Both the position numbers and the translations under genes were made by a program. The notes beneath the pieces were generated by a model. That model did no database searches and had not been told where the DNA came from. It saw nothing but the letters and a program-made list of their open reading frames with translations. From a virus (lineage: Duplodnaviria > Heunggongvirae > Uroviricota > Caudoviricetes): a stretch of 7,646 nt of DNA. Shown one piece after another: positions 68-2,544 of this stretch (positions within the stretch are counted from its first letter, which is position 1; each line of letters starts with the position of its first letter). The stretch spans positions 1-7,646 of IMG/VR virus record IMGVR_UViG_2778261463_000007. One strand, given 5' to 3'.

Positions 68-144
68 TGGACCGCCAGCGGGGAATCGAACCTAGCGCAC
101 TCAACTTAAAGGGTTGACGCTCTTTCCTGATGAGCTAGTAGCGG
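68..144 (-). tRNA. Atypical tRNA-like element (possible pseudo-tRNA); anticodon triplet by position is TTT, identity uncertain
   Basis: Minus-strand read CCGCTAC-TA-GCTC-ATCAGGAAA-GAGC-G-TCAAC-CCTTTAA-GTTGA-GTGCG-CTAGG-TTCGATT-CCCCG-CTGGCGG-T-CCA. Conserved U8, A14, G18G19, canonical T-loop TTCGATT, 5-bp anticodon stem and 6/7 acceptor pairs are present. Position 33 is C instead of the near-universal U, and the T-stem has two mismatches. Starts 1 nt after the CCA of the neighbouring tRNA. Confidence 0.45.
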
Positions 145-145
145 T

Positions 146-221
146 TGGTGGCCCTTGCTGAATTTGAACCAGCGCCCTTGCGATTATGAGTCGCTCGCTC
201 TCACCACTGAGCTAAAGGGCC
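146..221 (-). tRNA. tRNA with anticodon CAT, tRNA-Ile2-like (lysidine type; anticodon-based tools would label it Met); resembles E. coli ileX and the ileZ of Stx-type phages
   Basis: Reverse complement gives GGCCCTTTAGCTCAGTGGTGAGAGCGAGCGACTCATAATCGCAAGGGCGCTGGTTCAAATTCAGCAAGGGCCACCA: 7-bp acceptor stem, D-arm GCTC/GAGC, anticodon loop CTCATAA, T-arm GCTGG-TTCAAAT-TCAGC, encoded CCA. The anticodon arm CGACTCATAATCG matches my recollection of E. coli ileX rather than elongator or initiator tRNA-Met. Confidence 0.8.
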
Positions 222-353
222 TCGAGCAGCATAATAACGTTACGGGATTAATACCGCAAATCTCAGAGAAAGCCCGACAAACCCAACTAAGCGCACCTCT
301 TATCTGGTCCGCCAAAGAGCTTAATGTCCGGTGCAGATTTTCGATGTAAAAAA

Positions 354-371
354 CCGCCTGGCTGCGGGTTT
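354..371 (-). terminator. Weak candidate intrinsic terminator (4-bp GC stem CCGC/GCGG, 6-nt loop, followed by U6 on the minus-strand RNA)
   Basis: Plus strand aaaaaa-ccgc-ctggct-gcgg-gttt; on the minus strand the hairpin is followed by six T. The stem is short, so stability is marginal. Confidence 0.25.
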
Positions 372-694
372 AAGTTGTGTGGCGTAGGAACCACTCTTAC
401 CATGATATGCATACTTTTACGATCGTAAAGTGTTTGTTCATACCCTGCATGCTGCATGATTCACCCCACAGACAATCTCTGGATTGTTGCGACGTTTGGC
501 AAGATACAATTAAAGATTATGCATTCTTCTATGCACGTATTTTTCTTCAAAAGTAATGTCTTTATTAAGGTTATATAAATAACTCATAAACCCAAATAAT
601 TAAATATATTTAGCACTTCTAATAAAAAAGATTGATCTTAATTTTCTGAGTGAAAGATAGCCATCTATTTATTAGTTTGCATGACTTCTTATTT

Positions 695-710
695 TGTGAT
701 AGTGATCACA
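695..710. promoter_or_regulatory. Perfect match to both half-sites of the CRP consensus TGTGA-N6-TCACA, upstream of the porin gene
   Basis: Read directly: tgtga-tagtga-tcaca at 695-710, about 110 bp upstream of the porin ATG at 820. Confidence 0.4.
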
Positions 711-738: not shown

Positions 739-767
739 TTGTATACATTATACACAGAAATTAAATT
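739..767 (+). promoter_or_regulatory. Candidate sigma70 promoter for the porin gene (-35 TTGTAT, 17-bp spacer, -10 TAAATT)
   Basis: Hexamers read by eye with canonical spacing; each is a 4/6 match to consensus. Shine-Dalgarno GAGGA at 809-813 lies 6 nt before the ATG. If the start site is near 775, the CRP site would be centred near -72.5. Confidence 0.3.
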
Positions 768-819
768 TTCATCCTGATAGCATTTTGTCGTCCAATTAAC
801 TCCCACCAGAGGATAAAAA

Positions 820-1926
820 ATGAAAAATTTAACAGTGGCACTTTCTGCTGTAGCAGCATCAGTATTTCTGGCAACGTCTTCAAATGCAGCAGAAATATAC
901 AATAAAGATGCAAACAAAGTGGATTTATACGGTAAAGCAGTTGGTTTACATTATTTTTCTTCTGATAAGGACCAAAACGGAGATCAGACTTACGCACGCC
1001 TTGGATTCAGAGGTGAAACCCAAATAAATAATTATATTACTGGTTTTGGTCAGTGGGAATATAATTTCCAGGGGAACAACCCTGAAGGGGATGGAGCTCA
1101 AACTGGAAACAAGACTCGCCTGGCATACGCTGGTCTGAAGCTTGCAGATGCTGGCTCTCTTGATTATGGTCGTAACTACGGCGTGGTGTACGACGCATTA
1201 AGCTACACTGACGTCTTCCCGGAGTTTGGACCTACCGCAGCGCAAAAGGATAACTTCTTCGTTGGTCGTGTAGGCGGTGTTGCCACATACCGCAACACTG
1301 ACTTTTTTGGACTGGTCGATGGGCTTAGCTTTGCAATTCAGTATCTGGGAAAAAATGAACGCAAGGATAAACCAGATACTTCAAACGGAGAGGGTGTAGG
1401 TGGCTCTGTCAGCTATGAATATGAAGGATTTGGTTTTGTCGCAGCATACGGCGCTGCTGATCGTACTAAAAATCAGAAAAAGGCTGAGCTTGGTAAAGGG
1501 AAAAAAGCTGAACAGTGGGCCACCGGGGTAAAATATGACGCAAATAATCTGTACCTGGCTGCCAGTTATGGTGAAACAAATAATACCCGTGCAATATCGT
1601 ATGGTGATAATATTTCAGGAGTGGCGAATAAAACCGAAGATTTCACTGTTGTGGCACAATACCAGTTCGACTTTGGATTACGCCCGTCTCTTGCTTATAC
1701 CCACTCTAAAGCAAAAAACCTTTCATCCAGTACTGATATTAGTAAAAAACATGATGACGGATATATTGAAAAATTCGTTGAAGTAGGGGCTTCTTATTAC
1801 TTCAACAAAAATATGTCTACATACATAGATTACAAAATCAATATGCTCGATAAAAATAAATTCACTGAAAGAACAGGAGTATCAACCGACGATATTGTCG
1901 CTGTTGGTCTGGTTTATCAGTTCTGA
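820..1926 (+). CDS. General porin of the OmpC/OmpF/NmpC family (prophage-borne, NmpC/Lc-like), 368 aa, with N-terminal signal peptide
   Basis: Signal peptide [23 protein letters not shown] followed by mature N-terminus [16 protein letters not shown] typical of enterobacterial porins; PEFG loop-3 motif; C-terminus [24 protein letters not shown]...[16 protein letters not shown] ending in Phe. Strong RBS. Gene is markedly more AT-rich than the flanking phage genes. Confidence 0.95.
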
Positions 1927-2000: not shown

Positions 2001-2070
2001 AACGTTGGACAGTACTTAACTTTTCCAACGAACTTTCTGTTATTTATTAACCTTTTTGGTTTTTATACTT

Positions 2071-2097
2071 GGGCGCTTTGCGCCCATTTTTTATTTT
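2071..2097 (+). terminator. Rho-independent terminator for the porin transcript (GGGCGC-TTT-GCGCCC then A-TTTTTTATTTT)
   Basis: Perfect 6-bp GC-rich stem, 3-nt loop and a T-rich tract on the plus strand. On the minus strand no U-tract follows, so it should not terminate Q-gene transcripts. Confidence 0.7.
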
Positions 2098-2104
2098 GTA
2101 CGCC

Positions 2105-2527
2105 TTATATCCCTGCCCTAGAGGACGCAGTTTTACGACGTATCGAATAATTTGTGCTCACATATCGATCCATCTCAAGGCGAACATCTAGCATCATCAA
2201 CATACCATCAACCACTCCTTCAGCTTTTTGCAAACGCTTTCCAATATGCGTATCCGAACATCCATGTTTCATTGCTAACTTCATGAACGTCATCCCATAT
2301 ACGTAGTAATCAACCAGCATGTCATGCATATCGGCGTTGTTCTTTTTCAGGCGAGCCATACAACCACATATAATCATCGCGTCATCATCGGAACACTGCG
2401 ATCGCGATTTTACTTTTGACGGTATCAGCCCCTTAAATCCGGCGGCAATGCCTGACCATTCCACGTCTTCATGATTATTTGCGACCCATGCCCCCCAACG
2501 TTCAAGAACCATTTGAATATCACGCAT
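2105..2527 (-). CDS. Q: Late-gene antitermination protein Q (QuuD-like family)
   Basis: Translation [62 protein letters not shown]... closely resembles my recollection of E. coli DLP12 QuuD. Start placed at the ATG preceded by GGAG 8 nt upstream; the ORF track extends to a TTG at 2542. Sits last before the late region, as Q does. Confidence 0.9.
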
Positions 2528-2544
2528 CAACTTTCTCCACAAAA

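Follow-up and report, generated by a model that had tools for sequence, protein, structure and literature searches.

Control of porin genes by CRP is already documented for the prophage gene nmpC, for chromosomal ompD of Salmonella and for ompF, and the idea of a CRP-controlled porin promoter is therefore not new. Among lambdoid phages, the lysogenic-conversion porin lc (protein 2) of PA-2 was reportedly found to be catabolite-repressed in the 1970s-80s by Schnaitman and colleagues; lc belongs to the nmpC sequence type, unlike the porin described below. Crp acts on the nmpC promoter as an activator through two operators, OmpR, IHF and MprA act as repressors, and the transcription start was located by 5' RACE at a G (PMC11677980). 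In the RegulonDB list given in the supplement of Shimada et al. 2011, nmpC is a CRP activator target with two sites, one at -73.5 and the other, CTTGAAATAATCACAT, at -31. In the same work, genomic SELEX also yielded the nmpC<>essD spacer together with the -73.5 site, and several exact-core sites of K-12 intergenic regions stand in the SELEX table (Shimada et al. 2011). A site at -73.5 puts the nmpC start at the G 8 nt past the hexamer GAATAT, in agreement with the 5' RACE result. In nmpC-type promoters the site reads AGAGATCTAC(T/G)TCACA and is centred 118.5-119.5 bp before the ATG, and of 80 nmpC-type viral loci, 73 keep this site, at a distance of about -118 to -120 relative to the ATG.

The locus compared here with these systems lies in a 7646-bp stretch of DNA, called the window when the whole stretch that was analysed is meant, which shares 99.9% identity with a prophage carried by E. 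coli LH50-c, a strain from chicken. The original prediction of a prophage-borne porin was confirmed, since the window encodes a Porin_1 protein within a lambdoid prophage. The features that define this setting are as follows.

68-144, minus strand: tRNA-Lys (TTT), a phage tRNA gene
146-221, minus strand: tRNA gene with anticodon CAT, called tRNA-Ile by PGAP
348-429, minus strand: late-promoter-like block, TTTACG-16-TATCAT (429 to 402) with a weak hairpin and T run (373 to 348), from promoter scan, fold and alignment
820-1926, plus strand: porin gene, 368 aa, OmpF-like, Porin_1 family (Pfam PF00267; OmpF best in NCBIfam)
2070-2086, plus strand: intrinsic terminator of the porin gene, GGGCGC-TTT-GCGCCC then a T run (fold z-score -3.0)
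2105-2542, minus strand: Q antiterminator gene (PF06530, E = 6e-53)

The best NCBIfam match of the porin is OmpF at 540 bits, under the cutoff of 583, and its closest relatives outside its own two clusters are OmpF proteins, at 66-69% identity. Its identity to nmpC-type phage porins is ~61% at the protein and 66% at the nucleotide level, and with this distance, an unalignable promoter and OmpF as best family, gene and promoter fall outside the nmpC/lc/OmpD clade. To the right of the porin gene, the minus strand carries Q, a DUF968 gene, and DnaB-like and DnaC-like replication genes. The 82-bp block at 348-429 has counterparts of 77% identity in DLP12 and the CE10 prophage and is probably a Q-dependent late promoter followed by a terminator; it points away from the porin promoter and stands just 5' of the tRNA genes, to the left of which lysis, head and tail genes follow in the matching E. 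coli prophages (L001 and L002 included). If the block is indeed the late promoter, the porin cassette has Q on one side and the late promoter on the other. The gene lies on the opposite strand between Q and the lysis genes and has its own promoter and its own terminator, and is therefore a self-contained cassette. Such an oppositely oriented cassette in a lambdoid E. coli prophage would be a moron, the term for accessory genes that bring along a promoter and a terminator of their own. CE10-type sister prophages have the same flanks with an nmpC-type porin in that slot. The tRNA genes, positions 348-429 and everything rightward from the porin ATG can be aligned between these prophages, whereas the porin regulatory region at 430-818 cannot. 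An Rfam search of the window returned the two tRNA genes and nothing else; the slot of tRNA-Lys (TTT) holds tRNA-Arg in the sister prophages of CE10 and ECCNB12-2.

The exact porin protein occurs in 895 blocks of a public assembly collection, E. coli is the source of every named member of its cluster, and the locus is present in 5 of 5,426 complete genomes. The porin coding region exists in two versions, P0001 and P0002, with 79% protein identity (window versus L002 and L166-L168), yet the 390 bp upstream of them differ at no more than 10 positions, and LH50-c has both versions, in two prophages. This pattern is suggestive of a mosaic cassette or of a porin under diversifying selection.

The 22-bp CRP consensus is AAATGTGATCTAGATCACATTT, whose twelve core-hexamer positions are covered by TGTGAT/ATCACA. 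At 695-710 the window reads TGTGATAGTGATCACA, a palindrome centred at 702.5 which is intergenic and whose centre lies 117.5 bp 5' of the porin ATG. A perfect CRP consensus had been claimed for this position, and both half-sites are exact; when both strands of the 7646-bp window were scanned, TGTGA-N6-TCACA matched exactly at this single place. The match extends to 6+6 positions (TGTGAT-AGTG-ATCACA). By chance, an exact core is expected at a mean of 0.01 per window, and only 2 of 200 dinucleotide-preserving shuffles contained any match. With up to two mismatches allowed, four sites were found in the window against 3.87 expected; near-matches are therefore not enriched, and only the exact site at 695-710 stands out. 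In 1.19 Mb of enterobacterial and phage loci, nine exact cores were found, eight of them belonging to this porin promoter or to its relative on contig L169 (see below), so that unrelated exact cores occur at ~1 per Mb in those loci. The CRP-type reading of the palindrome likewise agrees with its sequence, as the exact half-sites are of the GTGA/TCAC type and not of the FNR type TTGAT/ATCAA. Two other readings of the palindrome were rejected: an FNR site, which would have the form TTGAT-N4-ATCAA, and a terminator, as the stem is of 6 bp and no T run follows.

The protein P0003, encoded on contig L169, is a porin 66% identical to that of the window. L169 is the sole truly divergent comparator, and upstream of its porin gene it carries the exact core with a different spacer, TGTGAACTTAATCACA, centred at -117.5 from the ATG as in the window. 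Between L169 and the window all ten core bases are identical (p about 8e-4), whereas five of the six spacer bases differ and the rest of the 175-bp module outside the core shows 49% identity. In a gapless comparison the similarity is confined to ~170 bp before the ATG, within which several islands besides the core are kept, namely TTGTAT, TAAATT, CAATTAA, GAGGAT and the box at 653-675. These elements are given below with the predicted site and start.

653-675, plus strand: upstream box AAAGATAGCCATCTATTTATTAG, kept in L169 as AAAGGTAGCCTGCTATCAGTTAG, with a short inverted repeat ATAG..CTAT
692-713, unstranded: predicted 22-bp CRP site TTTTGTGATAGTGATCACATAT with its 16-bp core at 695-710; exact core, half-sites invariant in 15 alleles and L169
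739-744, plus strand: candidate -35 TTGTAT, 3/6 consensus, 28 bp 3' of the CRP 16-mer; kept in L169; the nmpC -35, TTGAAA, has this offset too
762-767, plus strand: candidate -10 TAAATT, 4/6 consensus, after a 17-bp spacer; kept in L169 (18-bp spacer), counterpart of the nmpC -10 GAATAT
774-777, plus strand: predicted transcription start, from the -10 position and the nmpC geometry
793-799, plus strand: CAATTAA in the 5' UTR, by window/L169 conservation
809-814, plus strand: Shine-Dalgarno GAGGAT, by window/L169 conservation

The upstream box, AAAG(A/G)TAGCC..CTAT...TTAG, lies 40 bp 5' of the CRP centre and marks the distal limit of the regulatory module common with L169, beyond which the similarity is random. 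At the level of sequence, the footprint of conservation between the window and L169 is that to be expected from a CRP site plus a sigma-70 core promoter. Characters expected of a CRP site are seen at 695-710, namely a two-fold symmetric TGTGA-N6-TCACA core, an occurrence in a promoter region beyond chance, and half-sites that are kept while the spacer varies freely.

The setting of L169 is plasmid-like, with a PAPS-reductase gene 5' of the porin gene that resembles those of conjugative enterobacterial plasmids, and no phage genes were recognised on the contig. A search of complete E. coli genomes gave no match to L169, and in protein searches its porin was a singleton without a close relative on plasmids. 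The L169 porin gene is followed on its 3' side by a gene for Slam (PF04575, a surface lipoprotein assembly modifier) and one for a TbpB-like lipoprotein (L169 4364-6709); a Slam-dependent surface lipoprotein module beside a mobile porin is unusual in an enterobacterial element.

A consensus promoter scan found no plus-strand promoter, strong sigma-70 or otherwise, 5' of the porin gene, and the lack of a strong plus-strand sigma-70 promoter would be expected of a promoter that depends on an activator. The core promoter is weak, as a class I promoter is expected to be, with TTGTAT agreeing with the consensus at 3/6 and TAAATT at 4/6 positions. A rough hexamer-weight scan ranks TTGTAT-17-TAAATT fifth in the window and eighth in L169 and thus singles out no promoter, so that the assignment rests on conservation and on the nmpC analogy. 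Other weak hexamer pairs exist in the window and none of them is conserved in L169; TTGTAT with TAAATT is the only promoter-like pair that is. The -10 proposed from the initial inspection, at 762-767, is present as TAAATT and was independently picked out by conservation in L169.

When the promoters are anchored on the 16-mer, the distance to the -35 is 28 bp in all three types, TTGTAT in the window, TTGTAT in L169 and TTGAAA in nmpC, and the -10s TAAATT, TAAATT and GAATAT, respectively, follow after a spacer of 17-18 bp. If the nmpC geometry is carried over, the start in the window would lie at about 774-777, which would give a 5' UTR of ~45 nt and a CRP centre at -71.5 to -74.5; a start 7-8 nt past the -10 (774-775) would put the centre at -71.5 to -72.5. 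The -35 and the -10 are 17 bp apart in the window and 18 bp apart in L169 and nmpC, and the exact CRP position is therefore shifted by 1 bp between the window and the other two. Class I sites have their centre near -61.5, -71.5/-72.5, -82.5 or -92.5 from the start of transcription. The suggestion of a class I position near -72.5, counted from the predicted start, is supported by this comparison, in which the conserved -35/-10 pair matches the nmpC promoter, with its site at -73.5, position for position. A second CRP site like that of nmpC was not found between 430 and 830 of the window.

Polymorphism within the E. coli locus was surveyed in 15 sampled upstream regions, including those before the 79%-identical P0002. 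These close alleles are at least 97% identical upstream and carry little information; they form seven haplotypes, which differ at 13 positions within 390 bp, and none of the ten core bases varies. The CRP-like site is polymorphic at two spacer positions only, 701 A/G and 705 A/G. A at 705, which completes ATCACA, is found in 5 of the 15 alleles and G in the other 10, while 701G occurs solely with the P0002 variant; the allele of the window, with A705 and thus ATCACA, is nearest to the consensus. These A/G variants may tune CRP affinity. In ECCNB12-2, also a chicken isolate (L416 733-1936), the IS5-family element ISKpn26 has TTAG (window 672-675) as its insertion point, on the border of the conserved box and 20 bp 5' of the CRP site, with the CRP site and the core promoter intact. 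This case recalls the IS5 in K-12 nmpC and promoter-activating IS5 insertions elsewhere.

Taken as a whole, the model that 695-710 is the core of a cAMP-CRP class I activator site near -72.5 (between -71.5 and -74.5) of the cassette porin promoter is probably correct. Under this model, host cAMP-CRP would bind 692-713, a predicted high-affinity site, at the high cAMP levels of cells that lack glucose or are limited for carbon. The CRP dimer would be placed on one DNA face upstream of the promoter, centred near -72.5 in a class I position, and would recruit RNA polymerase through the alpha-subunit C-terminal domain to the weak TTGTAT-17 bp-TAAATT promoter. A lysogen would thus make the phage porin under catabolite-derepressed conditions, and synthesis would rise without glucose. 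Binding would presumably lead to activation rather than to repression, and it may interplay with the upstream box or with the silencing of AT-rich DNA.

Several other explanations of the site were weighed against this model. CRP may bind without acting as a simple class I activator, by repressing, by counteracting the silencing of AT-rich DNA or by serving another start. The region at 500-800 has a GC content of only 23-30%, typical of horizontally acquired DNA that is presumably silenced, a conserved box lies 40 bp 5' of the site, the start is a predicted one in a window with other weak hexamer pairs, and nmpC is additionally under OmpR, IHF and MprA; however, the distance from the site to the conserved -35/-10 pair is a canonical one for activation, L169 does not keep the alternative hexamer pairs, and the equivalent nmpC site is listed as an activator site, so that we consider this explanation unlikely. 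That the palindrome is an operator of another dimeric protein, either a phage regulator or another factor of the CRP/FNR family, appears highly improbable. Although a dimeric helix-turn-helix protein could recognise any inverted repeat of the 6+6 form and the prophage encodes several uncharacterised proteins of this kind, both half-sites are the exact CRP core, FNR's TTGAT-N4-ATCAA is not matched, only the bases contacted by CRP are conserved in L169 while five of six spacer bases differ, and the site follows the porin gene to L169, which is plasmid-like, non-phage and without phage regulators.

A palindrome that arose by chance and has no function could be imagined in a region that is AT-rich and of low complexity, the more so as sites with two mismatches are not enriched in the window. 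Against this stand the chance expectation of 0.01 exact matches per window, the lack of core substitutions among the 15 alleles and the independent exact core at the same offset in L169 despite flanks of 49% identity, which together leave very little probability to this explanation. The site also has the porin gene on one side and the late-operon end of the spacer on the other, just as the SELEX table places the nmpC site in the divergent nmpC<>essD spacer, and it might therefore control a divergent late promoter with the tRNA and lysis genes rather than the porin. The late-promoter-like element (429 to 402), however, is ~300 bp off, too far for class I or class II activation, and in L169 the site stands beside a porin gene with no late operon near; of the explanations considered, this one is given the least weight. 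A class I activator site of the porin promoter remains the preferred reading.

Further members of the promoter family were searched for in metagenome and viral contigs. The pattern CTTGTATA-N14-17-TTAAATTTT gave 238 matches that were examined, none of them beside a porin gene, and proved too unspecific, and two more specific promoter patterns returned nothing beyond the same viral contig. Five porins were considered as candidates and rejected. The promoters of P0004 and P0006 proved to be of the nmpC type, P0007 is a chromosomal porin adjoining an ApbE-family gene, and P0008 and P0046 have nmpC-type promoters on OmpF-like coding regions at the chromosomal ompF locus. The last two, on L412 and L415 from E. 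coli drafts, adjoin an aminotransferase gene that is aspC by position; L412 has an exact nmpC-type CRP site and phage lysis genes 5' of the porin, and L415 has a one-base variant of the nmpC-type site. P0008 and P0046 appear to be recombinants of a prophage porin gene and chromosomal ompF. Chromosomal ompF orthologues themselves have a conserved CRP-like site ~232 bp before the ATG, which is the ompF site at -121.5, and T(T/A)TGA-N6-TTCACA is seen ~218-234 bp before the ATG in many genera (chromosomal ompF-like loci L005-L084).

If the model is right, a phage-borne outer-membrane channel would be switched on by the carbon-starvation signal of the host, and the permeability of lysogens to nutrients and antibiotics, as well as their phage-receptor landscape, would be altered under certain growth conditions only. 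As the porin protein is found in so many assembly blocks, such an effect would be widespread. The locus offers a clean and very strong natural CRP-like site and a second promoter lineage of the same geometry, and is thereby useful for comparisons of the ways in which mobile genes become wired into the global regulation of the host.

Judged from its sequence, the site is most likely a credible but ordinary further case, unusually perfect, of a CRP-activated prophage porin promoter. What is modestly new, as read from the promoter sequences, is that mobile porin cassettes whose promoters cannot be aligned keep one CRP-to-promoter geometry, in which the CRP site precedes a weak -35 by 28 bp, the predicted start by ~72-74 bp and the ATG by ~118 bp. 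We tentatively put forward, as a possibility that we regard as somewhat doubtful, that at least three mobile porin lineages (nmpC/lc, OmpF-like prophage and plasmid-like L169) share one regulatory chassis, that catabolite control has been selected and is general for transferred porins, and that natural variants such as 705 A/G and the IS5-family insertion tune its strength. The likeness to nmpC could also stem from distant common ancestry and not from independent selection.

Among the known systems, E. coli ompF is the closest protein family (66-69% identity) and has CRP activator sites in the RegulonDB list, but these are listed at -52.5, -92.5 and -121.5, in a long upstream region controlled by OmpR. 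Salmonella ompD, an nmpC-like major porin, is likewise a general porin whose transcription is activated by cAMP-CRP, a finding attributed to Santiviago et al. 2003, but it is chromosomal and has a 5' UTR of 69 nt. From nmpC the window differs in that its porin, ~61% identical to the nmpC type, is OmpF-like and not nmpC/OmpD-like, in that its 430-818 region cannot be aligned with nmpC promoter DNA, and in that it has no counterpart of the second site at -31; the nmpC site is weak, AGAGATCTACTTCACA, with two core mismatches, whereas that of the window is perfect. In arrangement the two agree, as DLP12 (quuD-nmpC-essD) and lambdoid nmpC-type phages have a porin gene at this place, with Q and the lysis genes on the other strand, and a CRP site ~118 bp before the ATG and 28 bp from the 16-mer to the -35, as the window does.
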